A stretch of 64,000 nucleotides of DNA from an uncultured Candidatus Saccharibacteria bacterium (GTDB lineage Bacteria; Patescibacteriota; Dojkabacteria; SC72; WJKH01). The position numbers and the translations under genes are program-made. Positions 35,590 through 64,000 of the stretch are shown here, in pieces (positions within the stretch are counted from its first letter, which is position 1; each line of letters opens with the position of its first letter). The stretch lies in NCBI GenBank assembly GCA_964602665.1, contig CAZRRH010000002.1:62171-126170 (forward strand). Direction: 5' to 3'. The notes below the pieces were generated by a model. The model was not told the origin of the DNA and searched no databases. It was given only the letters and a program-made list of their open reading frames with translations.

Positions 35590-35680
35590 CAATTCAAAAT
35601 TCAAAATTTAGAATTTAAAATTACAAATTGTAAATCCTTTGCCTTTAATTCAAAATTTAAACTTTAGAATTTAAAATTGT
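35590..35680. repeat. A/T-rich repeat array (TTCAAAATT / TTTAGAATTTAAAATT units) overlapping the 3' end of the ABC ATPase gene
   Basis: The sequence is ATTCAAAATTCAAAATTTAGAATTTAAAATT...TTCAAAATTTAAACTTTAGAATTTAAAATTG. This is the reverse-complement orientation of the 13489 unit. The last six codons and the stop of the 35657..36463 gene lie inside it. Confidence 0.7.
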
Positions 35681-36463
35681 TCTGTATTTCTTCACCACCT
35701 CTTTTGGTGTACCATCTATTGCAACTTGTCCTTCATTGATAAGAATTGCTCTAGTGCAGAATTTCTCGACTAGCTCTAAATCATGAGATACAAAAATTAC
35801 CGTTTTATCTTTTTTGCGGAAACTCTCAAATTCATTAAAACACTTCTTCTGAAAATTGGCGTCACCAACTGCTAATACCTCGTCCATTATGTAAATATCG
35901 GCGTATGAGCGGATAGCGATTGAGAAAGCGAGTCTGACCTGCATACCTGAGGAGAAATTTTTAAGCGGCATATCAAGGAACTCTTCAAGCTCCGAGAATG
36001 CGACGATACTGTTAAATTTATCCTCAACCTCTTTGCGCGACATGCCAAGTATTACACCATTTAGATAGATATTGTCACGAGCTGTTAATTCTGGGTTAAA
36101 GCCAACACCAAGCTCCAGAAAAGGCACCAAAATACCTCTTACTTTGATTTTACCTTGGTTTGGCAAGTAAATTCCTGACATTATCTTAAGAAGGGTCGAT
36201 TTGCCTGATCCGTTATTTCCAAGTATTCCAACAAATTCGCCTTTTTCGACCTTAAAAGAGACATTTTTTAAAACTTCGAGTTTTCTTTTGCCATCGTTGC
36301 TAATCCATTTGTGCGGTTTTGCGAGTCTTTGGATTAGGGTGTCTGTTTTCTCTGTTGGTATGTTAAAGTGTTTACTTACATCTGACACGATAAGTGAGTA
36401 ATCATGTTCTTGTACGATTTTTTTTTGCTTGGTTTTTGCCATATTTTTAAAAAAATTCTGCAA
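35657..36463 (-). CDS. polysaccharide/teichoic-acid ABC exporter ATP-binding protein (Wzt/TagH-like)
   Basis: Walker A GILGNNGSGKSTLLK, signature FSSGMQVRLAFSIA and Walker B IYIMDEVLAVGD. It is paired with an ABC-2 permease. Confidence 0.75.
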   Translation of the reverse strand: MQNFFKNMAKTKQKKIVQEHDYSLIVSDVSKHFNIPTEKTDTLIQRLAKPHKWISNDGKRKLEVLKNVSFKVEKGEFVGILGNNGSGKSTLLKIMSGIYLPNQGKIKVRGILVPFLELGVGFNPELTARDNIYLNGVILGMSRKEVEDKFNSIVAFSELEEFLDMPLKNFSSGMQVRLAFSIAIRSYADIYIMDEVLAVGDANFQKKCFNEFESFRKKDKTVIFVSHDLELVEKFCTRAILINEGQVAIDGTPKEVVKKYRTILNSKV

Positions 36464-37214
36464 TCCTCTTAACTGTGGGTTTAAAATAGTTATATCCCAT
36501 AGATGTAAATAAAAATATTATTGAGAAAAGGAGGAATATCGTTGCGAAATCGTTTATGCTTACTTTATCGGCCTCTAAAAGCCCAGTGCGGAAAGCTTGG
36601 AGGATATGTGTTAGTGGATTAAGTTTAATAATCCTAGCGAGATTGTCTGGAAGCTGATCAACGCTATAAAGAATCGGAGTACCCCAAAACACCATTTGTA
36701 AGCCAAGCTCTACTAGATGATGCAGGTCTTTCATAAGAATATTGCCAAGACTTGTGAAGAAAGAGATAGACAAAATAAGCAGGTATAGTGTAAGTAGAGA
36801 GAATATAACTAATAATAGACCCCAAAAAGAGAGCTTTATTCCTGCTGCTATAGCAAATACTAGAAGTATGCCAAGATTAACAAGAAAATTAATAAGTGCA
36901 ACGGCCGTCGAACTGAATATAACAACCTCTCTTGGGAAGTTGATTTTTAGTATTATGTGAGACTTGTTTTCTAGGCACTTAAGACCAAGAGTTATGCCAT
37001 CATTGAAGTAGTTTGATATCATGATACCAGAAAGTAGGAAGAGGCTATTTTGATCTCGTGTGCGAAATATAGATGTCCAAATAAAATATAGTATAGAGAA
37101 TAATGCTAGGGGTTTAATTACCATCCATAAGAAGCCAAGCGCGGAGTTTTTATATCTATGTTTGAAGTCTGTTTTGACAAATTCATTTAGTAGATCGATA
37201 TAGTTTTTAAACAT
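36447..37214 (-). CDS. ABC-2 type polysaccharide exporter permease (Wzm/TagG-like)
   Basis: 255 aa with six TM helices and ABC-2 family architecture. Upstream of and overlapping the ATPase gene. Confidence 0.7.
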   Translation of the reverse strand: MFKNYIDLLNEFVKTDFKHRYKNSALGFLWMVIKPLALFSILYFIWTSIFRTRDQNSLFLLSGIMISNYFNDGITLGLKCLENKSHIILKINFPREVVIFSSTAVALINFLVNLGILLVFAIAAGIKLSFWGLLLVIFSLLTLYLLILSISFFTSLGNILMKDLHHLVELGLQMVFWGTPILYSVDQLPDNLARIIKLNPLTHILQAFRTGLLEADKVSINDFATIFLLFSIIFLFTSMGYNYFKPTVKRIAEFF

Positions 37215-37292
37215 GGTTTGTATTGTATCATATGATCATGTTTTAGGCAATTATTTTTCTGTTTTTTTGGCTGTTGTTATTATGATGTCAGG

Positions 37293-37320
37293 TTGACAAA
37301 AATTGTCATAGAGGTATAAT
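37293..37320 (+). promoter_or_regulatory. sigma70-type promoter TTGACA-16 bp-TATAAT for the galE-like gene, with a -35-overlapping palindrome TGACAAAAATTGTCA
   Basis: The -35 box is at 37293-37298 and the -10 box at 37315-37320, 40 bp upstream of the 37360 start. Confidence 0.45.
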
Positions 37321-37359
37321 CGAGAAGTAAAGTTTTAATTCAAGGTCTGATTTTAGTAT

Positions 37360-38391
37360 ATGAAAAAAGCTGTTTTAATAACTGGAGGTGCAGGATATAT
37401 CGGCTCACATGCGGTAAAGATGATGCTAGATCAAGGGTATAAGGTTATCGTATTTGATAATCTTTTTAGAGGCTATCAAGAAGCTATTGATACGCTTGCA
37501 AAATATTCGAAAGATAAAGGTCGTGGGGAGCTTCTTTTTTTTAAAGGCGACTTGCAAAAAAAGAATGATATTAAGAAAGTTTTAGCAAAGAATAAGGTTG
37601 GTGGGGTAATGCATTTTGCGGCATTGTGCCTTGTCAATGAGTCAATGGAGCAACCTGCTTTGTATTTTGAAAACAATGTTATGGGGACACTTAATCTGCT
37701 TGAGGCAATGAGAGCGTATGATGTTAAGAATATTATTTTTTCGTCGACTTGTGCAATATATGGTGAATCTAAATATTTACCTATGGATGAGAAACACCCT
37801 GTTAGTCCAATGAATCCCTATGGAGAATCAAAATTAATGGCTGAAAATATAATAAGGTGGTATACAAAACTTCATGGATTTAACAGTATAATTTTTAGAT
37901 ATTTTAATGTATGTGGAGCAGACTCTAGTGGGCTTATTGGCGATAGTAAAAAGCCTTCTCAACTTTTGGTACAAAATGCAGTAAGAGGTGCTATGGGGAT
38001 TGAGAAATTTTATCTTACATGTGGCAAGGTTGATACTCCTGATAAGACCCCTATAAGAGACTATATTGATGTGGAGGATCTTGTCAATGCTCATGGGTTG
38101 GCATATAATAAGTTACAAAATTTAAAAAAAGTTGGCATTGAAACTGTCTATAATCTTGGTAATGGCAAGGGCTGGTCGGTGCTTGAAATTGTGAGTGAAG
38201 TCGAGAAGATTTTTAATGTCAAGTTAAATGCACAGATGGGTGAGATTAGGAAGGGTGAGTATGCGATGGTGTATGCGGATACTAAAAAAGTAAAGAATGA
38301 ACTAAATTGGGCTCCAAGGAAAAATTTATCTGACAGTGTAAAAAGTTTGAAGCTATGGTATGCAAATTATAAGAATGGATGGCATAAATAA
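37360..38391 (+). CDS. galE: NAD-dependent sugar-nucleotide epimerase (UDP-glucose 4-epimerase family)
   Basis: Rossmann motif ITGGAGYIGSH and catalytic YGESK. Confidence 0.7.
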   Translation: MKKAVLITGGAGYIGSHAVKMMLDQGYKVIVFDNLFRGYQEAIDTLAKYSKDKGRGELLFFKGDLQKKNDIKKVLAKNKVGGVMHFAALCLVNESMEQPALYFENNVMGTLNLLEAMRAYDVKNIIFSSTCAIYGESKYLPMDEKHPVSPMNPYGESKLMAENIIRWYTKLHGFNSIIFRYFNVCGADSSGLIGDSKKPSQLLVQNAVRGAMGIEKFYLTCGKVDTPDKTPIRDYIDVEDLVNAHGLAYNKLQNLKKVGIETVYNLGNGKGWSVLEIVSEVEKIFNVKLNAQMGEIRKGEYAMVYADTKKVKNELNWAPRKNLSDSVKSLKLWYANYKNGWHK

Positions 38392-38411: not shown

Positions 38412-39428
38412 ATGTCTAAAAACAAAAAGAAAAAAGCATTAATAACAGGCATTACAGGTCAAGATGGAGCTTATTTAGCGAAGTTTCTTTTAGCGAAAAA
38501 TTATGAAGTTATTGGTGGCGCGAGAAGAAGTGCTTCTGGAGAATTATGGCGACTTGATAAACTTGGAATAAAAGATAAGGTAAAAATAGTAGATTTTGAA
38601 CTTACAGACTTTAGAAATATGTATGATCTCATAAAAGATTTGCAACCTGACGAATTATATAATCTTGCCGCAATGAGCTTTGTTGGATCATCGTTTAAAG
38701 CCCCAATTTCGACATACATAACTAACGGCTTAAGTGTAGCATATATATGTGATATTATTAGCTCAATTTCGCCTAAAACGAAAATATATCAAGCATCTAC
38801 TTCTGAAATGTTTGGAAAAGTAAGAGAAATTCCACAGAAGGAAACGACACCCTTCTATCCAAGGAGTCCTTATGGTGTTTCAAAACTAAATGCTTATTGG
38901 GCTATTGTAAATTACCGAGAGGCTTATAATGTGTTCGGATGTAATGGGATACTGTTTAATCATGAATCACCGCTTCGTGGTTCAGAGTTTGTTACTAAGA
39001 AAATTGTTGAATATGTTGGAAGATATAAGAAGGGGCTTACCAAGAAGGCGTTAGAGCTTGGCAATATGCATAGTAAAAGAGATTGGGGTTTTGCTGGAGA
39101 TTATATCGAAGGAATGTATCTTATGTTACAGCAACAAAAAGCTGATGATTTTGTACTAGCAACTGGTGAAACACATGAGATCATTGAATTTGTTGAAGAG
39201 GCTTTTAAACTAATAGATGTAAATATCAAGTGGGAGGGAGAAGGAATAAATGAGATTGGTAAAAATGGAAAAGAGTTAATCGTTAAAGTTAATCCTGAAT
39301 TTTTCAGACCGGCAGAAGTTGATTTACTTATTGGAGACTTCTCTAAAGCAAAAAAGAGTTTAGGTTGGGAACCGAAAACAAAATTTAAGGAACTTGTTAA
39401 GTTAATGGTTGATGCGGAATTAAAGTAA
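38412..39428 (+). CDS. gmd: GDP-mannose 4,6-dehydratase
   Basis: Motifs ITGITGQDGAYLAKFLL, MSFVGSSF, YGVSKL and NHESPLRG. Confidence 0.85.
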   Translation: MSKNKKKKALITGITGQDGAYLAKFLLAKNYEVIGGARRSASGELWRLDKLGIKDKVKIVDFELTDFRNMYDLIKDLQPDELYNLAAMSFVGSSFKAPISTYITNGLSVAYICDIISSISPKTKIYQASTSEMFGKVREIPQKETTPFYPRSPYGVSKLNAYWAIVNYREAYNVFGCNGILFNHESPLRGSEFVTKKIVEYVGRYKKGLTKKALELGNMHSKRDWGFAGDYIEGMYLMLQQQKADDFVLATGETHEIIEFVEEAFKLIDVNIKWEGEGINEIGKNGKELIVKVNPEFFRPAEVDLLIGDFSKAKKSLGWEPKTKFKELVKLMVDAELK

Positions 39429-39443: not shown

Positions 39444-40382
39444 ATGAGAAAAAAAATAGACATAATATTACCTGTTCATAATGAAGAGGAAAATATCCCA
39501 TTAATTTATAAAGAAATTTTGGATCAAGTTAAATTTGTTAATAAAAAATATGATTTTGAGATTATATTTGTAAACGATGGAAGTACCGATAAAAGTACGG
39601 AAGAAATAAAAAAATTGGTAAAAAAGAATAGTAAGATCAAATATCTTGTTTTTTCAAGAAATTTTGGTCATCACGCAGCGTTAGAGGCTGGCATGAAATA
39701 TGCTAAAGGTAATGCGGTAATCATGATGGATGCGGATTTACAGCATCCACCTTCTAAAATTCTTGAAATGATTAAAAAATGGGAAGAAGGTTTTCAAATC
39801 GTTAATACGAAGAGAGAGAATACCGAGAAAATAGGTTTTTTGAAGAAAATAATGTCCGATGGTTTTTATTGGGTGATAAATAGAATATCCGATATCAAAA
39901 TTGAAAATGGATCAGCAGATTTTAGATTAATTGATCGAAAAGTTGTAGAAGTCTTGAATAAACTGCCTGAAAAAGAGAAATTTTATAGAGGTCTTATTAA
40001 CTGGGTGGGATTTAATACCGTTGTAATAAATTATAAAGTGAGGGCCAGAATACATGGTAAGCCATCATATTCTATGAAAAAAATGATAAATCTGGCAAGA
40101 ATTGGGATAACATCTTTCAGCATGTTACCAATGAAGATAATACTTTCTTTTGGTATTTTACTAAGCCTTTTTGGAGGGATATTCTTTGTAGTAACACTAA
40201 TAGGATATTTTTTCTGGGAGAATTTTTTTTCTGGATCTACAATACTGGGGTCATTTATTTTAATGAACACAGGATTTATTGTTATAATGCTTGGAATAAA
40301 TTCAACATATCTGCTAAAAGCATTAAAACAAGTTGAAAACAGACCAAGTTATATTATAATGGAAAGCAATATAAATGAATAA
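39444..40382 (+). CDS. GT2 polyprenyl-phosphate glycosyltransferase (GtrB/CsbB/DPM1-like) with C-terminal TM helices
   Basis: Motifs DIILPVHNEE, FVNDGSTD and MMDADLQH, with two C-terminal TM helices. Confidence 0.7.
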   Translation: MRKKIDIILPVHNEEENIPLIYKEILDQVKFVNKKYDFEIIFVNDGSTDKSTEEIKKLVKKNSKIKYLVFSRNFGHHAALEAGMKYAKGNAVIMMDADLQHPPSKILEMIKKWEEGFQIVNTKRENTEKIGFLKKIMSDGFYWVINRISDIKIENGSADFRLIDRKVVEVLNKLPEKEKFYRGLINWVGFNTVVINYKVRARIHGKPSYSMKKMINLARIGITSFSMLPMKIILSFGILLSLFGGIFFVVTLIGYFFWENFFSGSTILGSFILMNTGFIVIMLGINSTYLLKALKQVENRPSYIIMESNINE

Positions 40383-41559
40383 AATAGGTATAGTTTCAAC
40401 ATATCCATCAGAAGATTTTTCTGATATGAACGAAAGCGCAATGAGCTGGTACAGTAAAAAGCTTTTAGATACTGTTCCAAAAGAATTAAGAAAAAATTTT
40501 ATCGTTCTTGCGAATAAGGAAGAAAGCTTAACTTCTTATTATGATAATGAAGTAAAAATAGATAGGTGTTGGAGTAGAAAGTCGTTTTTCTTCTTTATTG
40601 ATTTAATAAAAGAAATTAAGAGAGAGAAAATAAAAACAGTTCATGTCCAGCATGAGTTTAATCTTTTTGGATCGTTAATATCAACACCTTTTGTTTTATT
40701 GACGCTCTTTTTTTTAAAACTTATCGGAACGAGAATTATCGTCACTTTTCATGGGGTAATAAGTAAGAAAATCATTAAAGATGATTTTAATAAAATAAAT
40801 CAAATTAGATACCCTAATTTTTTCTTGAAAATATGCTTCTTTATATTTTATTTTCTTTCAGGCATTTTTATAGATCAAATAATTGTTCATGAGGAAATAT
40901 TTAAAAAAATTTTGGTAAAAGAATATTTCTTTTCTAAAAAAAGAATTCAAATTATAAATATAGGAATAGAGAAAATACAGAAGATTGATAAAGAAGATCC
41001 GTTACTAAGAGAGTTAGGAGTGATAAAAGACAAAAAGAATCTCTTATATTTCGGCTTTCTTGCAGGATATAAAGGAATAGATCTTTTAATAGATAGCTTT
41101 AATTTGCTTAATCAAGATAAATATACACTTTTTATATGCGGTGGTAAGCCAAAAAGAGTTGAAGAAGATATAAAATACAATGCCTGGTACAATAGGGTTG
41201 AAGAAAAAATCAAGAAAAATAAAAACATTATTATGACAGGCTTTGTGCCTGAGAATGATATAATAAAATATTTCTCAGTAGCTGATTTGCTAATTATTCC
41301 TTATTTGCAAATGTTGTCTGCAAGTGGTCCAATGGCTTTGGCTATTAGTTATGGTTTGCCGTTCATTGCAAGTGAAGTGTTTTCTGAAATTTGGGGAGAA
41401 GAAATTTGTTTTAAACTAAACAAAAAAAGCTTAGCAGAAAAAATCGAATATTATTTCGAACACGGAAAAGATAATATAAATGATATCGTAATTAAAGCAA
41501 GAGAAGAAAGAGAATGGAAGAATTTATGGTTAAAATATCAACAAATTTATTTTAGATGA
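40375..41559 (+). CDS. GT-B (GT4-like) glycosyltransferase; module A gene 1
   Basis: The C-terminal half, FGFLAGYKGIDLLIDSF, fits Glycos_transf_1. It is a paralog of 54872..56041. Confidence 0.5.
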   Translation: MNKIGIVSTYPSEDFSDMNESAMSWYSKKLLDTVPKELRKNFIVLANKEESLTSYYDNEVKIDRCWSRKSFFFFIDLIKEIKREKIKTVHVQHEFNLFGSLISTPFVLLTLFFLKLIGTRIIVTFHGVISKKIIKDDFNKINQIRYPNFFLKICFFIFYFLSGIFIDQIIVHEEIFKKILVKEYFFSKKRIQIINIGIEKIQKIDKEDPLLRELGVIKDKKNLLYFGFLAGYKGIDLLIDSFNLLNQDKYTLFICGGKPKRVEEDIKYNAWYNRVEEKIKKNKNIIMTGFVPENDIIKYFSVADLLIIPYLQMLSASGPMALAISYGLPFIASEVFSEIWGEEICFKLNKKSLAEKIEYYFEHGKDNINDIVIKAREEREWKNLWLKYQQIYFR

Positions 41560-42737
41560 AGATTCTTTTAGGAGTTCCTGAGTATCCTCCTTACAATGTA
41601 GGGGGAGGGGGGATAGTGTTTAAAAACTTAGCGGAACAATATAGGCAGAAAGGGCATGAAGTGGTTGTAGTTTATGGCTTTTATCCAACCAAGTCTATTT
41701 TTGCTAGCGTTTTAGAGTTTAAAGATGAAAATGGGATTCATTTTTATCAGATACCTGAGATACCTTATCCCAAGAAATTGCCTTTTTTAAGAACAGTTAT
41801 GCCACCAAATTTATCCGGATTTATAGCCATGTGGAAGATTTTGGGCTTAGAGAAACCGGATGTTGCACATTTACATGGATATGGGCTATTTATTGTTAAT
41901 TTAATGTCCGTTATGTTAAAGTTAAAAAAAATTAAATATGTCTTAACGATACATGGGTATCCTGAAACGCAGAAAAAAAGTGCTCCTTTGGTAAAATTAA
42001 TTTGGGGAATTTTCGATAAAACTTTAAATTATTTCTTGATTAAAAATGCTTCAAAAATTACTGCGGTAAGTAAATTTATTTTAAATGATTCAAGAAATAA
42101 ATTTAAACAAAAATCCATAGTGATTTATAATGGGTTTGATTACTATTCTTACAATAAAGTAAATAAGAAGTATGACATAAGAAATAAACACAAACTTAAG
42201 AAAGACGATTTCATAATTCTCTCTATTGGGCGAATTACTGAAATGAAAGGATTTCAATTAGTTGTGAAAAAAATTCCGGATCTTATAAAAAATGGTTTTA
42301 AACCAATATATATGATAATGGGAGAAGATGACGGATACAAAGCTGAATTACAGAGAATAATTTCTAAAGAGAAACTTGTTGATAATGTTCTTTTTTTAGG
42401 TTACATGAATATTGATGATAAAAAACAGTATTTAGAGCAATGTGATATATTCGCTGCTACATCAATTTGGGAGCCATTTGGACTTATTGCTCTTGAAGCA
42501 ATTTTTTTTAATAAAATAATATGGACTACCAACATAGGAGGTTTGAAAGAGATTCTAAAAGAGTACAAGAAAAAAATATTATTTACTACCAAAACCAATG
42601 AATTTATGAATAAAATAAATTTAAGCAAAAAAATAAAGGATGATTTTAATTTAGATCAATATTGGTGGGATAATATAACTTTAACATATCTAGAAACTCT
42701 TAATGAAATCAAAGAAGATTTTAATAATAACAAATGA
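41556..42737 (+). CDS. GT4 glycosyltransferase; module A gene 2
   Basis: The N-terminus is MKILLGVPEYPPYNVGGGG. Other motifs are GRITEMKGFQLV and EPFGLIALEA. About 60% identical to 56016..57149. Confidence 0.7.
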   Translation: MKILLGVPEYPPYNVGGGGIVFKNLAEQYRQKGHEVVVVYGFYPTKSIFASVLEFKDENGIHFYQIPEIPYPKKLPFLRTVMPPNLSGFIAMWKILGLEKPDVAHLHGYGLFIVNLMSVMLKLKKIKYVLTIHGYPETQKKSAPLVKLIWGIFDKTLNYFLIKNASKITAVSKFILNDSRNKFKQKSIVIYNGFDYYSYNKVNKKYDIRNKHKLKKDDFIILSIGRITEMKGFQLVVKKIPDLIKNGFKPIYMIMGEDDGYKAELQRIISKEKLVDNVLFLGYMNIDDKKQYLEQCDIFAATSIWEPFGLIALEAIFFNKIIWTTNIGGLKEILKEYKKKILFTTKTNEFMNKINLSKKIKDDFNLDQYWWDNITLTYLETLNEIKEDFNNNK

Positions 42738-43518
42738 CTTGTATGCAAAAATAAAAGCATCAATTTGGTTAATAAGAAAAATCGGTTTGTTTAAATTCGT
42801 TATGATTTTTGGAGGAATATTGTTGCAAATAAAACGAAAGATCATTACAGTTTTTGATTTTCGCGGAGAAAAAATCTCTATGCAGATAGATTCCTTAAGA
42901 ACGGACATATCGATGTTAACAGAATGTTTTTATTTTGAATCATATTTACATGAAAAATTATCAATTGGGAAAAACGGTCTTATAATTGATGCTGGTGGTT
43001 ATAAGGGAGATAGTACAGTTTACTTATCAAAGATGTACCCTCTTGCAAGATTTGTTGTTTTAGAAGCTAACTCATCTCTTATTGATTATATAAAGACGAA
43101 TTTAGAATTAAATAAGATAAAAAGATACAAAATTATTAATAAGGCACTGTGTGACTTTAAGGGGACAATAAAATTTAAAATTAATGATAACCTTCAATAT
43201 TCAAGAGGAAGTAATGATGGAGAAACTTTTGTTGAGACAATTACTATAGAAGATATAAACAATCAGTTCGGCAGAATTTCTCTTTTAAAACTAGATATTG
43301 AGGGAGCCGAAGAAGATGTTTTAGTTCGTTCTAATTTGTCAAAAGTTGATGCAATAATAATGGAGGCTCACAACGATAGAATTAATCTATGGAGAATAAT
43401 AAAAAAGCTTAGGAAAGAGGGATTTAAAAAAATTAAGTTGAAGAATAGTAATCTGAAACTGCTGAATTTAGAAGATGAAAATGCTATTGTGTTTTTTGTA
43501 AAAGAGCATACAAAGTAA
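42703..43518 (+). CDS. FkbM-family SAM-dependent methyltransferase
   Basis: The pattern IIDAGGYKGDSTVYL...FVVLEANSSLIDYIKTNLELN...GTIKFKIND is FkbM-like. Confidence 0.55.
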   Translation: MKSKKILIITNDLYAKIKASIWLIRKIGLFKFVMIFGGILLQIKRKIITVFDFRGEKISMQIDSLRTDISMLTECFYFESYLHEKLSIGKNGLIIDAGGYKGDSTVYLSKMYPLARFVVLEANSSLIDYIKTNLELNKIKRYKIINKALCDFKGTIKFKINDNLQYSRGSNDGETFVETITIEDINNQFGRISLLKLDIEGAEEDVLVRSNLSKVDAIIMEAHNDRINLWRIIKKLRKEGFKKIKLKNSNLKLLNLEDENAIVFFVKEHTK

Positions 43519-43566
43519 AAACATTAAAATGGATAGTAGATATTAATTTATTAATTTTGTAATAAA

Positions 43567-45343: not shown

Positions 45344-45389
45344 GTTAAATGGTTATCATCTGTGAGGAACGAAGCAAATTGAAAGAATC

Positions 45390-52049: not shown

Positions 52050-52052
52050 TGA

Positions 52053-52337: not shown

Positions 52338-52386
52338 ATTTTAATTATATCATAAGGCTGGCTGTATGTCAAGTGATTGCATTACT

Positions 52387-52734: not shown

Positions 52735-52804
52735 GTTATCATTATATCATATCAAGGCCAAAAAGACAAGATATGTAATTAGGTAATAATAACATATTGT
52801 TAGG

Positions 52805-56041: not shown

Positions 56042-57149
56042 GTATCCTCCGTATAACATTGGTGGTGGTGGCTTAGTATATGAAGCACTAGCTAATCATT
56101 ATCGTGATTTGGGACATGATGTTACAGTTCTATACGGTTTTTATCCAACAAAGAGCATATTTGACAGGACTAAGAGTTATACAGATAAAAAGATAAAATT
56201 TCATCAAATTCCGCTTATCCCGTATCCTAAAAAGATGCCTTTTTTACGTGGTGTGATGCCACCGAATCTTGCAGGCTTTATTAAAATGGTAAGAGTTGTT
56301 ATAAAGCAAAGACCTGATGTTGTCCATTTGCATGGATACGGTCAAGTTTTTGTAAACATGCTTGCGATTTTCTTAAAACTGTTAAAAATCCCTTATCTAT
56401 TAACATTTCATGGGTATAGTGATACTCAAAACAGTGCAGGTAAATTAGTAAAAATATTGTGGAACATATACGACAAATTGTTTAATAGTTTCACGATTAG
56501 AGGCGCGAGAAGGATTACATGTATTAGTAAATTTATTTGTGACGACAAACGAAATATCGGTAAAAGCAAGTCAGTCGTGATAAATAACGGTTTTGATTTT
56601 AGCATATATGACAACATAAAAACTGAAATTGATATTAAAAAGAAACATAATCTGCCTCAGAATGCAACAACAATCTTATCAATCGGTAGGATAAGCAAAA
56701 TGAAGGGCTTCCAATTAGTTGTAGAAAAACTTCCTGAGCTTATAAAAAACGGTTTAAATCCTTACTATTTTATAATGGGCGATGACGATGGTTATAGAGA
56801 TGAATTAGAAAATTTAATAAAGGAAGAAAAAGTACAAGATAGAGTTATCTTCTTGGGGTTTATGGGACCCAAAGATAAAAAAGTATACTTGGAGCAGTGT
56901 GATATCTTTGCGGCAGTGTCTTTATGGGAGCCGTTTGGGCTTATGGTTCTTGAGGCAATGTATTTTGGCAAACATATCTGGTCATCAGAAGTAGGCGGAA
57001 TCGGCGAATTATTGGCGGACTACAAATATAAAACAGTAATTGACAAGATCCCACGGATTGACAAACGAGAGTATAAATACGATATGAGTAAATACAAATG
57101 GGATAATATTGCAAAAGAATATATTAAATTATTACAAGAGATTTCTTAA
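56016..57149 (+). CDS. GT4 glycosyltransferase; module B gene 2
   Basis: The N-terminus is MKILLGVPEYPPYNIGGGG. Other motifs are GRISKMKGFQLV and EPFGLMVLEA. Confidence 0.7.
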   Translation: MKILLGVPEYPPYNIGGGGLVYEALANHYRDLGHDVTVLYGFYPTKSIFDRTKSYTDKKIKFHQIPLIPYPKKMPFLRGVMPPNLAGFIKMVRVVIKQRPDVVHLHGYGQVFVNMLAIFLKLLKIPYLLTFHGYSDTQNSAGKLVKILWNIYDKLFNSFTIRGARRITCISKFICDDKRNIGKSKSVVINNGFDFSIYDNIKTEIDIKKKHNLPQNATTILSIGRISKMKGFQLVVEKLPELIKNGLNPYYFIMGDDDGYRDELENLIKEEKVQDRVIFLGFMGPKDKKVYLEQCDIFAAVSLWEPFGLMVLEAMYFGKHIWSSEVGGIGELLADYKYKTVIDKIPRIDKREYKYDMSKYKWDNIAKEYIKLLQEIS

Positions 57150-58240
57150 TGAAAAAAAAGATTGCTGTTTGTATAACATATTACGAGCCGGGCGGACAAT
57201 CGGTAGTAGTGGAAGAAACGACTAAAAGATTTGCTAAATTTTATGATATTGATTTATACTGCGTTGGTGCGTCAAAACCTAAGCCTGCGTGGATAGACAA
57301 TTTATACCTAGTTAAGCCGTGGGTACATAAGTATATTCCAATAATCAATAAGCAGTTTATAAATGATATAAAATCTCGTAATTATGCGCTTATACATTGT
57401 CACGATTCGCTTCCCTTCTTAAACGCATTCTACAAAAACGGTATAAAATATATGGTAACTTGTCTTGGTAACACAGATTGGCAGTATAGAGATGGATTAG
57501 TATCAAAAATAGATGGTATTGCGAGTTTACTATTTTATGGTAGAGGATACAAAGAAGCTGTTAAAGTTATATCTATAAGCAAATACTTGCAAGAATGGCT
57601 TAAAAAGACTTATAAAGTTGAATCACAAGTAATAGATCTTGGTGCCAATACAGACAGATTTCACCCTACGCAAAAAGCAAATTGGAGAGACAAAAGATTT
57701 ATTTACTTTGGACAAATATCTTATCGCAAAGGCATTTTAGATCTTATTGAAATGTCTAGATTAATAAAAGATAAACATCCAGATTTTGTGCTTGAAATAT
57801 ATGGATTTGGCAAAGAAGAGTTTATGGAGAAAGTCCGAAATTTAATAAAAAAGCACAAACTAGAAAAAAATGTAAATTTAATCGGCTTTATAAAAGATGA
57901 GGAGCAAAATAGTAAGTATAACAGTGCTTTAGGTGTTATATCAGCTTCTTATTGGGAAGGATTTGGGTTGCCAATAATCGAGGCGTATAGATGTAACAGG
58001 CCAATCTTTGTTAGAAACAGAACCGCCATGAAAGATCTTGTAATTGATGAGAGATTTCGATTTGATGATGTTGATCAGCTTGTTGGGAAACTAGATTATT
58101 TTCTTTCAAATGAGAAAGAGTTTAGAGATATTGATTGGACAACTAAGCTTGATAGTGAAAAGTTCAGTTGGGATTTTAACTCTAAAAGATATTTGGATAT
58201 TATCGAGGAGATTATTGCCAATACGATGGTAATAGAGTGA
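57149..58240 (+). CDS. GT4 glycosyltransferase; module B gene 3, with a 999-bp core identical to 43567..44658
   Basis: Residues Y12-N344 are identical to the module A copy. Only the first 11 aa and the last about 19 aa differ. Confidence 0.7.
   Translation: MKKKIAVCITYYEPGGQSVVVEETTKRFAKFYDIDLYCVGASKPKPAWIDNLYLVKPWVHKYIPIINKQFINDIKSRNYALIHCHDSLPFLNAFYKNGIKYMVTCLGNTDWQYRDGLVSKIDGIASLLFYGRGYKEAVKVISISKYLQEWLKKTYKVESQVIDLGANTDRFHPTQKANWRDKRFIYFGQISYRKGILDLIEMSRLIKDKHPDFVLEIYGFGKEEFMEKVRNLIKKHKLEKNVNLIGFIKDEEQNSKYNSALGVISASYWEGFGLPIIEAYRCNRPIFVRNRTAMKDLVIDERFRFDDVDQLVGKLDYFLSNEKEFRDIDWTTKLDSEKFSWDFNSKRYLDIIEEIIANTMVIE
57182..58180 (+). repeat. 999-bp exact dispersed repeat, copy B
   Basis: See copy A. 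The offset between copies is 13,579 bp. Confidence 0.8.
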
Positions 58241-58358: not shown

Positions 58359-59687
58359 TTAGGCCGATTTCGCAATTGCTTTTCTGCTTTGTACGAGAAT
58401 AAAAAGGACATTAGTTACAATGAAGATTGCTGCTAAAACAGCTGTGGCATACGCGATATGAAATAGTGAGCCTGAGAAAACATACAAAACAATAATGAAC
58501 GATGTCGCGTATATGAAAATGAGTGTTCGTTCAACTTTATTATCAGGGACTGTTTTTAGCATATATATAAATAGGTAGTATACAAAAGTATTAAGAAACC
58601 AAGCTAGGCCAAACCAGAGAGAATAGCCGGATAAAAAATACTCTTCATATCCTACAAATGATAATATGGCTCCCGGTGCTAACCATTCTGCTATAAAAAC
58701 AGCTCCGTATGAAAGAGAAATAAGCGCTAAAGATACACCTAAAATTTGTACTAAATATTTGCTTATATGCTTTTTACCCTCTGCCATAAGGTCTTTACCT
58801 GTCAATACAACAACAAGACTTGTGCTTATAAAAAGTGGAAATTTATAGAGGAAAGCATAAGTTGTATAAATAACATAATTGGTATCTGAAAGTAGTGATT
58901 TTAATACAATGCCATCTAAGCCAAAAAAGACAACTAGACTAAGTTGGATAAGCATATTTACCAGAATTTGAACCGTGTCAATTTTCAGATCTTTTGCTAG
59001 CTGTTTATTTTTGTTAACAAAGAATTTCTTAAGAAGCTCTTTAACGCTAATATTGTCCTCTTTTGCAACAGCTAAAAATGTAATATATGTGTTAATAAGC
59101 GGAGTTACTAAGAAGGCCGTAAAAAGTGGCCACACAGCACCATTGGAGACAAATAGTAATGTAAAAAGTGTCCTAGCAATAGGTGCAGTAAGTGCAAGTA
59201 ATCCTGTTAAAGTAAATTTCTCGCGGATAACGGCGATAGCTTGTGGAAATACAGCAATCATCCCAAGAGAGTTGGATATCAAAAGAAGGACGATTATTAA
59301 ACTTTCATCAACGGCAAGGGGTAAGTTTCTAATTATTATTATCGCACATATAATTATTGATATTATAAGATTTATAATTGAGGTTTTTTTAATAAGTATT
59401 GCGATAGCGTTAAACCGATCTTCTTGTTTAATTGCTGATAATTTTAATAAAATCCAGTTGTAAAGAGAGGAGGTTGCATAACCAAGAAGTCCCATTGTGT
59501 ATATTCCGAAGTTTAGAGTTGCCAAGTTAGTATCTGTTAGTTGCTTTACTTGTTTTTGTATGTAGAAGCCACCAACTTGTAATATGCTGCTAAGCGCAGA
59601 GAAAAAGATGACTTTAAAATATGACGAATAAAAAAATCTTGTTAAAAATGCAACAGGGCTATCTTTTTTTAAATTGTCATCTTTCAT
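58359..59687 (-). CDS. polytopic membrane protein, probable oligosaccharide flippase (Wzx/MOP-family-like)
   Basis: 442 aa with about 12-14 TM helices and no soluble domain, sited within the glycan locus. The family assignment rests on topology only. Confidence 0.4.
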   Translation of the reverse strand: MKDDNLKKDSPVAFLTRFFYSSYFKVIFFSALSSILQVGGFYIQKQVKQLTDTNLATLNFGIYTMGLLGYATSSLYNWILLKLSAIKQEDRFNAIAILIKKTSIINLIISIIICAIIIIRNLPLAVDESLIIVLLLISNSLGMIAVFPQAIAVIREKFTLTGLLALTAPIARTLFTLLFVSNGAVWPLFTAFLVTPLINTYITFLAVAKEDNISVKELLKKFFVNKNKQLAKDLKIDTVQILVNMLIQLSLVVFFGLDGIVLKSLLSDTNYVIYTTYAFLYKFPLFISTSLVVVLTGKDLMAEGKKHISKYLVQILGVSLALISLSYGAVFIAEWLAPGAILSFVGYEEYFLSGYSLWFGLAWFLNTFVYYLFIYMLKTVPDNKVERTLIFIYATSFIIVLYVFSGSLFHIAYATAVLAAIFIVTNVLFILVQSRKAIAKSA

Positions 59688-59767: not shown

Positions 59768-61891
59768 ATGAGAAAGATAGATATAATAATTCCTCTTTTT
59801 AACGGGCAAGATTTTTTTGTTAAGTGTCTTGAGTCAGTTTTAAAATATAATGATCTTGATAAACTCAATATAGTGATTATTGATGATGCAAGCACAGAAG
59901 ATAAACTTCTTGATTTCTTAAAGGAGGTGTCAGATAAAAAGATTCCAAACCTCACAATTTTAAAAAACGATAAAAATTACGGCTTTGTAAAAACTGTAAA
60001 TCGTGGAATGAGTCATAATAAAATTAATGATGTGATTTTGCTAAATACCGATACTGTGGTAACAGAAAATTGGTGGCAAAACATGGCAAAAGCTTGTTAT
60101 TCAAAAGATAATATCGCAACTGTAACGCCCTTGTCAAATAATGCAACTTTGACTTCTGTGCCAATTCCATTTGTTAAAAACGAGCTTTTTGATGGAGTAA
60201 CCGCTGAGGATTATAGCAAAATAGTACAAAGTGTTGGGGAGCCTAAATATTACGAATTACCAACGGCAAACGGTTTTTGTATGTACATATCTAGGCAGGC
60301 ACTTAATGAAATCGGACTTTTTGATTATGATAAATTTGGAGCAGGATATGGAGAAGAAACTGATTTTTGCTTACGAGCAAGAAAACGAGGATATATAAAC
60401 ATCGTTGCTGACAATGTTTATATAGAGCATCTTGGAAGCGCAACTTTTTCAATCAAAAGCAGGGAGCAGAAAGTTAAAAACGCCATTAAAATAATTAAAA
60501 AAGAGTACCCTAAATATTCTCGTGAAATATTTGATTTTGGATATAATAATCCACTAAAACCCCTGTGTGACAAAGTTAAAATATTACAGATGCTATGGAA
60601 ATACCAGCAGAAAAAGAAACTTTTATTATACAAACATTATGAGGCGACTACAGCAGGAACAGGTGTTTATGTTTATGACATAGCTAGAAGTAAATCTAGT
60701 GATTGGCTTTATATTGTTATGTGTCCAACACCGCATGATCAGCATAAAATTGAAATTATGACGGATAATGGAGTTGTGACATTTAATATTTCATCAAATG
60801 AACCCATTGAAAAAATTATTGATATGCTAGGGATTGATTTGTTGCATGTTAACTTTTTGACTGATTATATTAAGAAATCATTAAAAAACATTGAGATACC
60901 CAAAATCATATCTGTGCATGAATACAGCTTTATTTCTCCCGACAATCCTTTTATTGTAATCCCGGGAAAGCATGGTAGAGATCGTTTTGCAAAAAGCCTT
61001 GTTGACTACTTTAAAAAAGTGGATAGGAGCGAGCAGGAAGAAATCGATCAGAAATTAACAGAAATATACTCTCAATTTGATAAAATACTTTTCTTGTCGC
61101 CTTATATGCTTGAGCAAATTAAAACTATTTTTCCCAAAAAAACCAAGATTTTTGATGAAAAAACAATTATTTTACCGCCCAAATTGACACCCTTTAGTAA
61201 GATAAAGAGTAAAGATGGTAAAAAGACTATCGCATATTTAGCCCCTAGTGTTGAACATAAAGGCATAATTGAGTATTTGGAAATTTGTTCTGATCCTCAA
61301 ATAAGACAAAAATACAAATTCTTAGCAATTGGTAGTGTTAAGCATATTCCAAGACCGCTTTTAAAAATGCCCAAATTACTTATTTTCTTTGGATTTAAAG
61401 TAAAAAAAAGTGGTGAATATAAGAAAGAAGAGCTTGGAAAGATATTTGAAGATAATAATGTAGAAATAGTAATTATTCCATCGCTTTTTGCTGAAACATA
61501 CAGTTATACTTTATCTGAAGCTAGTATGCTTGTTGACAAGGTTTTGGTAAATAGCGTAGGAGCACTTGCTTGGCGAGCAAAACATGAAAATATCGCTACA
61601 GAATACAACTGTACTGAAGAAGCAAAGAAGATAATATTGCATAATAGTTTTAAAAAAACTGACAATATAAATACAAAAGAAGGAGAGTTTATAGAGAAGT
61701 ATCATCAAATAACAGATGAATATGTTAAAAACAGTAGAAGTGGTATAATACTTGACATCGAGATAGATTTATCTGACAACACAACTAATAAAAGAGGCGT
61801 AAAAAATCGAATAAGAGAAAGGTTAATTGGTACTTGGGTGATGAAACTAATTAAAGATATCAAATATTACAAAAATGAGTATTTGGGGTAG
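59768..61891 (+). CDS. multidomain glycosyltransferase (N-terminal GT2 plus a C-terminal GT-B-like domain)
   Basis: The GT2 N-terminus is IDIIIPLFNGQ...IIDDASTED...LLNTDTVV. The C-terminal roughly 350 aa have a Rossmann-like glycosyltransferase pattern. Confidence 0.55.
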   Translation: MRKIDIIIPLFNGQDFFVKCLESVLKYNDLDKLNIVIIDDASTEDKLLDFLKEVSDKKIPNLTILKNDKNYGFVKTVNRGMSHNKINDVILLNTDTVVTENWWQNMAKACYSKDNIATVTPLSNNATLTSVPIPFVKNELFDGVTAEDYSKIVQSVGEPKYYELPTANGFCMYISRQALNEIGLFDYDKFGAGYGEETDFCLRARKRGYINIVADNVYIEHLGSATFSIKSREQKVKNAIKIIKKEYPKYSREIFDFGYNNPLKPLCDKVKILQMLWKYQQKKKLLLYKHYEATTAGTGVYVYDIARSKSSDWLYIVMCPTPHDQHKIEIMTDNGVVTFNISSNEPIEKIIDMLGIDLLHVNFLTDYIKKSLKNIEIPKIISVHEYSFISPDNPFIVIPGKHGRDRFAKSLVDYFKKVDRSEQEEIDQKLTEIYSQFDKILFLSPYMLEQIKTIFPKKTKIFDEKTIILPPKLTPFSKIKSKDGKKTIAYLAPSVEHKGIIEYLEICSDPQIRQKYKFLAIGSVKHIPRPLLKMPKLLIFFGFKVKKSGEYKKEELGKIFEDNNVEIVIIPSLFAETYSYTLSEASMLVDKVLVNSVGALAWRAKHENIATEYNCTEEAKKIILHNSFKKTDNINTKEGEFIEKYHQITDEYVKNSRSGIILDIEIDLSDNTTNKRGVKNRIRERLIGTWVMKLIKDIKYYKNEYLG

Positions 61892-63827
61892 TAACGCAAA
61901 TCCTTCCAATACAAGGCTTGCAATTCGAAACTTAATACTTAAGTGCAATTTGTTACATAAGGGCTATAGTAATGCCAAGTATTTTTTCCAAGGTAGTCTA
62001 AAAAAAGATAATTATAATAATTGGATAAAAAATGTTGAGCAGCCGATGTTCGAAAAAGTCTATGAAAACACACTTCCTGAGCATTTTGTTTATCAGCCTA
62101 AAATAAGTATATTATTACCCGTATTTAATGTTCATCCTAAATATCTTAGTCGTGCAATTAAATCTGTGCAAGCTCAAAAAGCACAAAACTGGCAACTTTG
62201 CATTCATGACGATGGAAGTACATTATATAAAGATGAGAACAACTCTTTAATAAAAGAATTCATGAAAAAGGATGCAAGGATTTTTTACAGCGAATCAGCA
62301 AAGAATGAAAACTTATCAGAGTCTACTAATAAAGCATTTTTGTTGTCTACGGGCGATTTTGTAACATTCCTAGATCAAGATGATCAGCTTTCACCGTATG
62401 CAATTTATTTTGTGACCAAGACCTTAAATGAGGATAGAAAAATAAAAATAATTTATTCTGATGAAGATAATATTGCAGACATCAAAGATGAACAGTCACA
62501 AACTATCCGACAGAGTCATTTTTTTAAACCTGACTTTGCGCCTGATACTCTTTTGAGTATGCCTTATACCACGCATTTAACTGCTTATGAAAGCAAGCTT
62601 TTTAAGAAAATGGGAGGCTATAGAATAGGATATGAGGGTGCACAGGATTTTGATATGATACTTAGAGCTAGCGAAGTTGTTTCTTACGAGCAAATTTATC
62701 ATATCCCTCATGTGCTATATCATTGGAGGACGGTTGCTACATCAACAGCAAGCGCTAAGCAAACATACAAAGACAAAAGATATGCAGAAAACAAGTCTGG
62801 AATTGAGAAATCGCAAGAAAAAGCGCTAAAAGATGCTATAATGCGTCGTAAAGAAGGCAAAGATGTAAAAGCAGGCATGGTCAAAAACAGCTGGCAAGTA
62901 ATTTACCCAATCGATCCTAAAAAAGATAAAGTATACATACTTATCCCAACAAAAAACCGAGAGGATTTGCTTAAAATTTGTCTTGATAGCATAAAAGAGA
63001 GAAGTACATACAAAAATTATGAAGTCGTAATAATTGATAATCAATCCAGCACAAAAGAAAGCCTTGATTTCTTAGCAAATATTAAAAAAGAATATGGTAG
63101 AAAATTTAGCGTTATAAAACATGATAAGCCCTTTAACTACTCTGCAATAAATAATTATGCTGTTAATAAGAGCGTAAAAAGCTTAAAAAACGCTCACTTA
63201 CTATTTTTAAACAATGATACACAAGTTATTTCTCCTGACTGGATTGAGCAAATGCTTATGCATAGTAAAAGGGATAGTATTGGTGTTGTTGGGGCGCTAC
63301 TACTTTTTGCGAATGAGACTGTACAACACGCTGGAATTGCAATTGGGACAGGTATTGTTGGAACATATTTAAAAGATGACATAGTTAAATATAGTCGCGA
63401 TGAAAGCGCAATAATTCGCGTTGCATCAGAGTATCACAAGTACTACAATGCAAAAAACTCTGGCTATATGGAGAGATTAAAAATTGTAAATAATGTCTCT
63501 GCAGTCACGGGTGCCTGCATGATGATAAAAGCTTCCCTTTTTAAGAAATTAGGCGGCTTTGACGAGCAGAATTTGCCAATAACTTGCAATGATATGGACT
63601 TGTGCTTAAAGGCTCTTGAAAAAGGTCTTAGAAATATTTATACTCCTTATGCAAAACTTTATCATTACGAGAGTTATACTCGTAAAGAAGAGACATATAT
63701 TGAGAAAATCAGTGATGTCAAACTTGAGGAGATTAACTTTTTTAGAAAAAAATGGTCCAAATATATTGATCACGATCCTTATTATAATAAAAATTTCAGT
63801 AAGGATAATGCTAATTTTGAGATATAA
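61875..63827 (+). CDS. tandem double-GT2-domain glycosyltransferase (polymerising rhamnosyl/glycosyl-transferase-like)
   Basis: The first GT2 domain is ISILLPVFNV...IHDDGS...FLDQDD. The second is VYILIPTKNRED...VIIDNQS...FLNNDT. Confidence 0.65.
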   Translation: MSIWGSNANPSNTRLAIRNLILKCNLLHKGYSNAKYFFQGSLKKDNYNNWIKNVEQPMFEKVYENTLPEHFVYQPKISILLPVFNVHPKYLSRAIKSVQAQKAQNWQLCIHDDGSTLYKDENNSLIKEFMKKDARIFYSESAKNENLSESTNKAFLLSTGDFVTFLDQDDQLSPYAIYFVTKTLNEDRKIKIIYSDEDNIADIKDEQSQTIRQSHFFKPDFAPDTLLSMPYTTHLTAYESKLFKKMGGYRIGYEGAQDFDMILRASEVVSYEQIYHIPHVLYHWRTVATSTASAKQTYKDKRYAENKSGIEKSQEKALKDAIMRRKEGKDVKAGMVKNSWQVIYPIDPKKDKVYILIPTKNREDLLKICLDSIKERSTYKNYEVVIIDNQSSTKESLDFLANIKKEYGRKFSVIKHDKPFNYSAINNYAVNKSVKSLKNAHLLFLNNDTQVISPDWIEQMLMHSKRDSIGVVGALLLFANETVQHAGIAIGTGIVGTYLKDDIVKYSRDESAIIRVASEYHKYYNAKNSGYMERLKIVNNVSAVTGACMMIKASLFKKLGGFDEQNLPITCNDMDLCLKALEKGLRNIYTPYAKLYHYESYTRKEETYIEKISDVKLEEINFFRKKWSKYIDHDPYYNKNFSKDNANFEI

Positions 63828-63845
63828 ATTATAATTAAATAAATT

Positions 63846-64000
63846 ATGAAATATCTAATATTTGCCGGCGGGAGTGGTACAAGATTTTGGCCTCTAAGTA
63901 GGAAAAATGAGCCAAAACAGTTTTTAAAAATATTTAATGGCAAATCAACATTTGAGCTTGCGGTTGAAAGAGCATTTAAAAACTGTAATGCAGATGATAT
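63846..64000 (+). CDS. manC: mannose-1-phosphate guanylyltransferase (ManC/CpsB-like), 3'-truncated by the window edge
   Basis: The N-terminus MKYLIFAGGSGTRFWPLSRKNEPKQFL matches the NTP_transferase signature (AGGSGTRLWPLSR). Confidence 0.55.
   Translation, partial: MKYLIFAGGSGTRFWPLSRKNEPKQFLKIFNGKSTFELAVERAFKNCNADD

Follow-up and report, generated by a model that had tools for sequence, protein, structure and literature searches.

A 64,000-nucleotide window of an uncultured Candidatus Saccharibacteria bacterium (assembly GCA_964602665.1, contig CAZRRH010000002.1, positions 62,171 to 126,170) carries a surface-glycan locus of about 28 kb at 35657-64000. Two tandem genes of this locus, 45390 and 47632 (genes are named here by their lowest window coordinate), encode GT-C glycosyltransferases of a short AftD-like subfamily in the PF11847/DUF3367 lineage, not YfhO-like proteins as a first-pass annotation of the same DNA had proposed. 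They belong to a stretch, 39444-52049, that is one instance of a recurrent, uncharacterised operon of the candidate phyla radiation (CPR), and they are followed by a small membrane module that is likely, judged by gene neighbourhood, a dedicated partner of such enzymes. An open reading frame (ORF) map of the locus was scanned against the Pfam and NCBIfam hidden Markov models (HMMs). The resulting inventory (Table 1) bore out the earlier view of one large mosaic locus that unites ABC export, methylation and pairs of GT-A and GT-C enzymes using lipid-linked sugars. It is a cell-surface glycan biosynthesis cluster in a low-GC bacterium making peptidoglycan.

Direct searches with the large membrane proteins gave little. 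Among 45390, 47632, 49899, 52805 and 58359, the sole Pfam or NCBIfam match was a sub-threshold one of 45390 to GT-C_AftD (PF11847; 12.4 bits, E 0.037, gathering threshold 26 bits); 47632 had no direct match to this model. The first-pass annotation had made its reading depend on HMM support for GT-C and GtrB-like assignments, and for the membrane proteins such support was literally lacking; deeper analysis reversed this outcome for 45390 and 47632. A word-index homologue search with 45390 found only 4 relatives, and an exhaustive phmmer search found 1605, 83 of them at <1e-30 and mostly about 750 aa long. An alignment and profile, A1, was made of 48 full-length members of this family. PF11847 was matched by 8 of the 48 (best 3e-31), and YfhO (PF09586) by none of them at E<=0.01, nor by 45390 or 47632 at E<=10. 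From position 19 to position 533, the A1 profile aligned with the Mycobacterium abscessus AftD structures 6W98/6WBX (E 4e-12). An AlphaFold model of 45390 generated from A1 (pLDDT 81.9, pTM 0.84) retrieved AftD as the top Foldseek match (E 2e-9), followed by PglB, DPY19, STT3 and ArnT. The second protein, 47632, aligned with the A1 profile over its full length by hhalign (99.8 %, E 3e-30) and has orthologues in two other loci, L077 (62 %) and L078 (41 %). Both proteins are thus members of the GT-C superfamily, with AftD nearest in profile and in structure. By sequence they would be distant members of the AftD family or a sister subfamily of it.

The 45390 protein has an N-terminal core of many transmembrane (TM) helices, an extracytoplasmic region consisting of alpha/beta and beta-sandwich parts, and one C-terminal TM helix. 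It shares with 47632 a highly conserved C-terminal motif, '..ANGW.IDP...L.LYF.PQ', together with the final TM helix. The A1 family conserves an Asp (D38) in the first extracytoplasmic loop, a Trp/Gly pair following it, and an FRSxxKF motif. The HMM alignment puts D38 about two positions or less from the Asp of the AftD sequence KLDL and aligns the Lys of FRSxxKF with that of the AftD sequence RNVHK. KLDL is taken here as K39/D41, on the assumption that the numbering of the deposited chain is shifted by 3 residues, and the Lys of RNVHK is presumably K361. The essential residues of AftD include K39, D41, E251, K361 and D474 (bioRxiv 10.1101/2019.12.22.885152). The beta-rich extracytoplasmic domains of the two proteins probably hold the acceptor. 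A stretch reading AWDYWG in 45390 (residues 462-467) was considered as the WWDYG motif of oligosaccharyltransferases (OSTs) and rejected; it is not conserved in the family.

The likeness to AftD extends to the N-terminal polytopic GT-C core, the first-loop Asp, the conserved R/K motif aligned with RNVHK, and a soluble extracytoplasmic domain leading into a C-terminal TM region. The two window proteins nevertheless depart from the AftD architecture. At 754 and 756 aa they are half the size of AftD (about 1400 aa); AftD ends in an acyl-carrier-protein-binding bundle of helices, whereas they end in a single TM helix. They also have fewer beta-sandwich domains of the carbohydrate-binding module (CBM) kind than the three CBMs of AftD, and their direct Pfam scores fall below the AftD family threshold. 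The AftD donor is decaprenyl-phospho-arabinose (DPA), whereas no DPA pathway genes lie near the window genes and the neighbouring synthase is of the hexose PgfS/GtrB type; the locus ORFs scanned include no UbiA/DprE-type families. Finally, AftD is found in Actinobacteria, whereas the window family is found in CPR and DPANN, in tandem and with a small membrane module.

Using A1 to scan a single genome from each species recovered 75 loci. Almost all belong to metagenome-assembled genomes (MAGs) labelled CPR/Patescibacteria (Paceibacteria, Moranbacteria, Saccharibacteria, Gracilibacteria, SR1, Peribacteria, Roizmanbacteria and others) or DPANN (Woese-, Pace- and Nanoarchaeota), and a few carry Methanoperedens or proteobacterial labels. 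The closest homologues of the locus proteins come from Parcubacteria/Paceibacteria-type MAGs, and together with features of the window this makes a CPR affiliation of the organism likely. Gene neighbourhoods were tallied over 72 loci, drawn from the A1 scan and from exact protein look-up. A PgfS-like GT2 (E<=1e-20) lies within 10 kb of the AftD-like gene in 19 of the 72, usually 5-8 kb before it and in the same orientation; in DPANN and Methanoperedens loci the position upstream is occupied by GT2s resembling 54189. A second AftD-like gene, frequently shorter (about 550 aa), often stands 3' of the first, and in many loci the tandem GT-Cs are followed by the small module. Locus L011, from an unrelated genome, has the whole order: a PgfS-like GT2 (361 bits), a GT4 (333 bits to 40375), a GT4, an FkbM methyltransferase in the same position upstream of the GT-C, an AftD-like GT-C, a short GT-C and the module. 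L029 keeps most of this order, with Gmd inserted, and in both loci the orthologue of 40375 (325-333 bits) is directly 3' of the GT2. Since L011 fully and L029 largely repeat the gene order, 39444-52049 is an instance of a recurrent operon. The earlier suggestion that such an organisation is uncharacterised in organisms of this kind appears true in that no literature linking AftD-like/DUF3367 proteins to CPR or DPANN was found, although coverage was incomplete and this is weak evidence of absence; the logic of multiple GT-A/GT-C pairs is, on the other hand, known in Firmicutes. What appear uncharacterised are the short AftD-like subfamily, its tandem arrangement with the module, and its distribution in ultrasmall prokaryotes.

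Distant AftD-like GT-Cs (P0003, P0009) were also seen in four other loci, L079-L082 (GCA_040960625.1, GCA_040960995.1, GCA_040960975.1 and Logan SRR25508683). These are crowded with B12-binding radical-SAM (S-adenosylmethionine) enzymes, class I methyltransferases and GT4s, which points to heavily methylated glycans as predicted products in other lineages.

The third gene of the tandem cassette, 49899, had no place in the first-pass annotation. Its product is anchored at the N-terminus, has an extracytoplasmic domain of about 500 aa without a Pfam or NCBIfam match, and ends in TM helices. The small module occupies its final ~105 aa (about 51738-52046; 3-4 TM helices). Members of the module family were found as 50 ORFs in 48 of the 72 AftD-like loci of CPR and DPANN. 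Their alignment, A3, gives the consensus 'DSR..A..AL.FL..P.LL..K....AE..AVYAYYFLV', in which one Glu is invariant and one Arg nearly so. The module is usually a protein of about 120 aa directly after the second GT-C and is sometimes fused to larger proteins (stand-alone or fused examples are L006:15377-15766, L046:17112-17477 and L015:14904-15320). Sequence and profile searches found no match for it in Pfam or the PDB. Two known small-protein families, GacJ and GtrA, were considered for it and found no support in Pfam, and the polyubiquitin matches of 49899 are meaningless sums of repeats of about 1 bit each. Gene neighbourhood alone suggests a lipid-sugar flippase or an accessory subunit of the AftD-like enzymes. 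Four further proteins (L004:11741-14125, L009:15946-18327, L040:8729-11113 and L045:5502-7643), of about 715-795 aa, carry the module at the N-terminus, find no match in the AftD-like profile and could represent a further family of partner enzymes.

A sugar donor for the GT-Cs could come from 39444. This GT2 aligns over its whole length both with PgfS (258 bits; residues 4-311 of 312) and with ArnC (141 bits); both scores are below the equivalog cut-offs, so that membership in GtrB/CsbB/PgfS/ArnC holds at the family level. Two C-terminal TM helices (232-250 and 267-285) complete a GtrB/CsbB architecture. Its earlier description as GtrB/CsbB-like was therefore sound, and 39444 is predicted to be a full-length polyprenyl-phosphate sugar synthase of the PgfS/GtrB/ArnC type.

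A second candidate pair of this kind, 54189 and 52805, is divergently arranged. The GT2 of the pair, 54189, has no predicted TM helix. In NCBIfam it comes closest to AglJ (48.5 bits, cut-off 325) and to dolichyl-phosphate hexose transferase (30 bits, cut-off 375), and by these cut-offs it falls outside the DPM1/AglJ-type families. Because the matches are so far below cut-off, the DPM1-like label serves as no more than a lead for this sequence, which is a candidate second polyprenyl-phosphate sugar synthase; in DPANN loci, homologues of it are found 3-6 kb 5' of AftD-like genes. The membrane protein of the pair, 52805, had been called ArnT/PMT-like. Neither it nor its orthologue matches any Pfam or NCBIfam model, including PMT, PMT_2 and ArnT, at E<=10, and no PDB match was found by single sequence or profile. 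The word-index search gave one relative, and the relatives amount to P0010 (99 %) and L078:11244-12692 (35-39 %); metagenome scans with the single sequence and with the alignment both found nothing, and iterative local HMM searches with 52805 and 58359 in 82 fetched loci recovered orthologues only.

Three observations connect 52805 with the GT-C class. First, its alignment A2 (positions 113-221) matched the AftD-like A1 (117-238) in register by hhalign (89.8 %, E 2e-6), compared with 33 % for the reversed alignment and at most 6 % for five other membrane proteins. Second, a first-loop motif, SDG[IV]DNY...FWYPPLY, is conserved in the orthologue, its acidic part following TM1 and preceding FWYPPLY. 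Third, the pairing with a GT2 is conserved: the L078 orthologue also stands head to head with an orthologue of 54189 (48 % identity). With GTG 54208 as start codon, the 5' ends of the window genes share about 20 nt (54184-54208), and the L078 starts are 2 nt apart (11241-11244), and therefore each promoter must lie inside the other gene. In addition, the orthologue bears a precomputed 'faint' match to MptA_B_family, a GT-C family. Together with the roughly 11 predicted TM helices, these lend modest support to the assignment, and 52805 is probably a GT-C.

The 12-TM protein 58359 had been called Wzx-like. It too matches no Pfam or NCBIfam model at E<=10, among them Polysacc_synt, MurJ and the MATE type, and no PDB entry by single sequence or by a five-sequence profile. 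The word-index search gave 4 homologues, all of them close relatives. Its topology, 6+6 TM helices around a basic central loop, would suit a Wzx flippase of the multidrug/oligosaccharidyl-lipid/polysaccharide (MOP) superfamily but is not specific for it, so the Wzx label is a guess. Its position beside the orthologues of 59768 and 61875 is kept in L077 and L078.

It is conceivable that 52805, 58359 or both are neither glycosyltransferase nor flippase, being instead a Wzy-like polymerase, a WaaL-like ligase or a transporter, which would leave the locus with one GT-C system. Neither protein matches a family model or PDB sequence, both families are lineage-restricted, and the 6+6 topology of 58359 fits a transporter of the major facilitator superfamily as well as a MOP flippase. 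For 52805, however, the hhalign value above all controls, the MptA_B_family match of the orthologue and the conserved head-to-head pairing with a DPM1-like GT2 argue otherwise, and we hold this alternative to be somewhat unlikely.

The export and sugar-supply genes flank these systems. The 35657 ATPase has TagH (195 bits) and Wzt/RfbE (192 bits) as its best NCBIfam matches, both below the equivalog cut-offs, and the adjoining permease 36447 is nearest Wzm/RfbD (60 bits) and KpsM. Both are thus closest to exporters of glycans or teichoic acids, which upholds the assignment of a Wzm/Wzt-type ABC-2 exporter. The TagH and Wzt alignments are confined to the nucleotide-binding domain and end at residue ~265 of 268 aa, leaving no room for more; this Wzt is therefore predicted to be without a C-terminal carbohydrate-binding domain. 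In the prototype of methyl-capped export, Escherichia coli O9a, it is the C-terminal carbohydrate-binding domain of Wzt that reads the terminal methyl caps and couples them to export. The two methyltransferases, FkbM-type 42703 and Methyltransf_11-type 44636, were confirmed by Pfam and NCBIfam. Their proposed role as chain caps for ABC export is weakened, because the window Wzt is apparently without the cap-reading domain and because the FkbM methyltransferase holds the same slot before the GT-C in the L011 operon. GalE, Gmd and a partial ManC were confirmed as well. The scans detected no GDP-4-keto-6-deoxymannose reductase (Fcl or Rmd) in the window, and therefore the GDP-6-deoxyhexose supply that had been proposed is incomplete there. 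Pfam identifies six GT4s (40375, 41556, 43567, 54872, 56016 and 57149), as had been counted. The five GT2 enzymes proved to be five GT2 domains in four proteins (39444, 54189, 59768 and 61875, the last with two). The C-terminal part of 59768 has no PDB match by sequence or profile search, and orthologues of 61875 are present in L077 and L078 (52-57 % identity).

Taken together, these components are compatible with the following mechanism, which we consider reasonably probable. The functions of the genes are those established above; the order of the steps we infer. GalE, Gmd and ManC would supply nucleotide sugars. Cytoplasmic GT4 and GT2 enzymes would build a lipid-linked glycan, whose sugars the two SAM-dependent methyltransferases would O-methylate, and the Wzm/Wzt-type transporter, to which 58359 may contribute, would export the polymer. 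In parallel, membrane-anchored 39444 would load polyprenyl phosphate with a hexose and soluble 54189 would probably load it with another sugar. Once flipped, these lipid-monophosphate sugars would be the donors for the outer-face GT-Cs 45390, 47632 and probably 52805, with the C-terminal module of 49899 as a suggested lipid-sugar flippase or accessory subunit. The acceptor or acceptors may be a polymer, a lipid or a protein. There is precedent in Firmicutes, where several GT-A/GT-C pairs per genome decorate different polymers and the GT-Cs often have no Pfam domain (PMC8035078), and in ABC-dependent O-antigen loci, where GT-Cs add side chains and GT-A/GT-C pairs stand beside ABC-dependent synthesis (PMC11127046).

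Several points weigh against this mechanism. GT4 and methyltransferase genes occupy the 5 kb between the synthase 39444 and the GT-Cs, an order that suits linear assembly equally well. No phosphoglycosyltransferase of the WecA or WbaP type that could initiate the glycan was found in the window, and no locus ORF or small-module member matches the GtrA family, which would flip the lipid-sugar. The AftD-like proteins are predicted enzymes throughout the subfamily. Lastly, 52805 and 58359 match no family, and the AF2 single-sequence model of 52805 (pLDDT 45) is unusable.

The collinear operon could also be read as a pathway of the Agl kind. In haloarchaeal N-glycosylation by AglJ/G/I/E/P-AglB, which works on lipid-monophosphate carriers, AglJ and AglD are DPM1-like GT2s, AglP is a methyltransferase, AglR a flippase, and AglS and AglB are GT-Cs, AglD and AglS adding the final sugar. 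By analogy 39444 would start an oligosaccharide on polyprenyl monophosphate, the GT4s would extend and the methyltransferases modify it, and after flipping an AftD-like GT-C would pass the whole oligosaccharide on en bloc, either to a lipid or to a protein such as an S-layer protein or pilin; 54189/52805 would add the final sugar. DPM1-like GT2s, cytoplasmic glycosyltransferases, a sugar methyltransferase, a large flippase-like protein and GT-Cs are indeed common to the two systems. The order GT2-GT4-GT4-methyltransferase-(GT4-methyltransferase)-GT-C is kept in other genomes, the window is without a phosphoglycosyltransferase, AglJ is the best NCBIfam match of 54189, the AftD-like family is common to DPANN archaea, and the oligosaccharyltransferases STT3, AglB and PglB are among the nearest folds of the 45390 model after AftD. 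Yet AftD, closest both in structure and in sequence, uses a single-sugar donor, and 39444 is nearest PgfS and ArnC, which are synthases of monosaccharide donors. The window has neither an AglB/STT3 orthologue nor a WWDYG motif of the OST type, the AWDYWG of 45390 not being conserved in its family. The match of 54189 to AglJ is 48 bits against the cut-off of 325, and the Agl pathway is archaeal whereas this is a bacterial locus with a Wzm/Wzt exporter, which indicates a polymer pathway. En-bloc transfer is thus unlikely here. Less likely still is that the cassette is a distinct, horizontally shared pathway of these ultrasmall episymbionts. A methylated oligosaccharide would then be made on a polyprenyl-monophosphate carrier and attached, on the outside of the cell, to a protein or lipid of the surface, with the module as a new type of lipid-linked-sugar flippase or an obligate GT-C subunit; no phosphoglycosyltransferase was found in the conserved operon as far as it was examined.

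The first-pass annotation had envisaged two YfhO/CsbB-type systems in the style of teichoic acid glycosylation and one ArnT/PMT system, each with a different acceptor. The overall GT-A/GT-C logic of this proposal holds, and the first loop of 52805 reads D-x-D-N-Y ... Y-P-P-L-Y, which we take to resemble the PMT_2/ArnT signature. The failure of 45390, 47632 and the 48 relatives to match YfhO, that of 52805 and its orthologue to match PMT, PMT_2 or ArnT at E<=10, and the absence of teichoic-acid synthesis genes from the window make it very improbable.

The favoured mechanism, in which single sugars carried on lipid are transferred outside the cell, has close functional relatives in the Gtr-type systems (GtrA/GtrB/GtrC, CsbB/GtcA/YfhO, CsdAB/CD/EF and GacI/J/K/L). 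These likewise combine a GT2 polyprenyl-phosphate sugar synthase with an outer-face GT-C, come as several GT-A/GT-C pairs per genome and often have GT-Cs without a Pfam domain (PMC8035078). In the Gac system a GacI-like soluble GT2, a possible GacK-like large flippase and a GT-C would parallel 54189, 58359 and 52805. Unlike the three-component systems, the window has no detected GtrA-family or GacJ/DUF2304-like protein, though the small module might be an analogue of GtrA. The GT-C family of the window is AftD-like and neither YfhO nor PMT_2. The window synthase and GT-C are also set apart by GT4 and methyltransferase genes, and teichoic-acid genes are absent. ABC-dependent O-polysaccharide loci (galactosylation of Klebsiella O-antigen; pentofuranose in Citrobacter youngae, PMC11127046) similarly bring together Wzm/Wzt, ManC/Gmd and multi-domain glycosyltransferases, with a GT-C that has an extracytoplasmic domain resembling carbohydrate-binding ones. 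In contrast, the window organism is probably monoderm-like, with no lipopolysaccharide genes seen in the window; its Wzt is apparently without a cap-recognising domain, its GT-Cs are in tandem, and the phosphoribosyl transferase and epimerase components of the three-component Citrobacter youngae system are missing.

The mosaic character that had been ascribed to the locus is real. The GT4 trio 54872/56016/57149 is paralogous to 40375/41556/43567, the proteins of the three pairs being 29, 55 and 97 % identical. In nucleotides, 43567 and 57149 agree at 98.8 % over 1047 nt (43566-44612 and 57148-58191), compared with only 55 and 29 % for the neighbouring paralogues, and this suggests a recent gene conversion or duplication that would have involved the last GT4 gene alone. 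L077 is without the entire 52805-58240 block, and L078 has the 52805/54189 pair without the GT4 trio. In L077 the genes after ManC include additional GT4s and GT2s. GC content falls to 28-30 % across 40-48 kb, compared with 32-37 % in the remainder of 35657-64000. The GT4 paralogy, the missing blocks and the GC dip make this a modular, recently rearranged locus.

Table 1. Genes and ORFs of the surface-glycan locus, in window coordinates
Coordinates	Strand	Length	Assignment	Basis
35657-36463	-	268 aa	ABC exporter ATPase, Wzt/TagH-like	Pfam ABC_tran, E 1e-22
36447-37214	-		ABC-2 permease, Wzm-like	Pfam ABC2_membrane, E 2e-13
37360-38391	+		UDP-glucose 4-epimerase GalE	TIGR01179, 344.6 bits (cut-off 262)
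38412-39428	+		GDP-mannose 4,6-dehydratase Gmd	Pfam GDP_Man_Dehyd, E 5e-123; TIGR01472, 400.7 bits
39444-40382	+	312 aa	Predicted GT2 polyprenyl-phosphate sugar synthase, PgfS/GtrB/CsbB/ArnC type	Full-length NCBIfam alignments
40375-41559	+		GT4, conserved partner of the 39444 GT2	Pfam
41556-42737	+		GT4, paralogue of 56016 (55 % identity)	Pfam
42703-43518	+		FkbM-family methyltransferase	Pfam Methyltransf_21; TIGR01444, 80.8 bits (above cut-off)
43567-44658	+		GT4, near-identical copy of 57149	Pfam
44636-45343	+		Class I SAM methyltransferase (Methyltransf_11)	Pfam
45390-47654	+	754 aa	AftD-like GT-C glycosyltransferase 1	
47632-49902	+	756 aa	AftD-like GT-C glycosyltransferase 2, distant paralogue	hhalign to A1 profile
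49899-52049	+	716 aa	Membrane protein with C-terminal small membrane module	Topology prediction
52053-52337	-	94 aa	ORF	Called as a gene in L001
52387-52734	-	115 aa	ORF	ORF map; promoter-like site
52805-54208	-	482-aa ORF	Polytopic membrane protein, ~11 TM helices, candidate GT-C	Topology prediction
54189-54890	+	233 aa	Soluble GT2, tentatively DPM1/AglJ-like	Pfam GT2
54872-56041	+		GT4	Pfam
56016-57149	+		GT4	Pfam
57149-58240	+		GT4	Pfam
58359-59687	-	442 aa	12-TM (6+6) membrane protein, candidate flippase	Topology prediction
59768-61891	+		GT2 domain (residues 1-226) and 480-aa region	HMM scan
61875-63827	+		Protein with two GT2 domains, candidate polymerising glycosyltransferase	Two GT2 stretches
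63846-64000	+		N-terminus of ManC-like mannose-1-phosphate guanylyltransferase	HMM scan; gene cut by window end

The envelope of CPR/Patescibacteria and DPANN is almost uncharacterised, yet it mediates host attachment. Two large unannotated proteins are now placed in the GT-C class, with AftD nearest, in an operon that recurs across many ultrasmall prokaryotes, and a small module absent from Pfam and the PDB is flagged as a likely partner of GT-Cs; 45390, 47632 and the module are concrete candidates for expression and for glycan or glycoprotein study. Because the logic of a GT-A lipid-sugar synthase, a GT-C and ABC export is already well known, this is an extension of known biology and no new principle.

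Two small soluble ORFs, 52053 and 52387, with almost no leader, lie between the GT-C cassette and 52805. The first is preceded by a perfect sigma-70 consensus, TTGACA-17-TATAAT with an upstream TG (52372 to 52344), and the second by a strong promoter-like sequence, TTGTCT-17-TATAAT with TG (52769 to 52741). No homologue of either was seen in the other fetched loci, and neither Rfam (gathering threshold) nor ARAGORN finds an RNA gene in 52050-52800.

The window has a GC content of about 33 % and uses the standard genetic code. Sizeable ORFs without a Pfam match lie at 9387-10910(-) and 42-3407(+) (507, 262, 327 and 497 aa). At 27008-29697 lies a separate, small group of glycosyltransferase genes, which code for a GT2 resembling rhamnosyltransferases, a protein of 241 aa and a GT4. 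Genes for tRNA-Phe and tRNA-Gly come next, and about 6 kb of folate and housekeeping genes keep the group apart from the main locus. The window also encodes FtsW, MurG, FtsEX, an M23 peptidase, ClpB, a two-component system, folate enzymes, a 23S-IVS protein and a ProRS that carries a C-terminal ProRS-C_1 domain.

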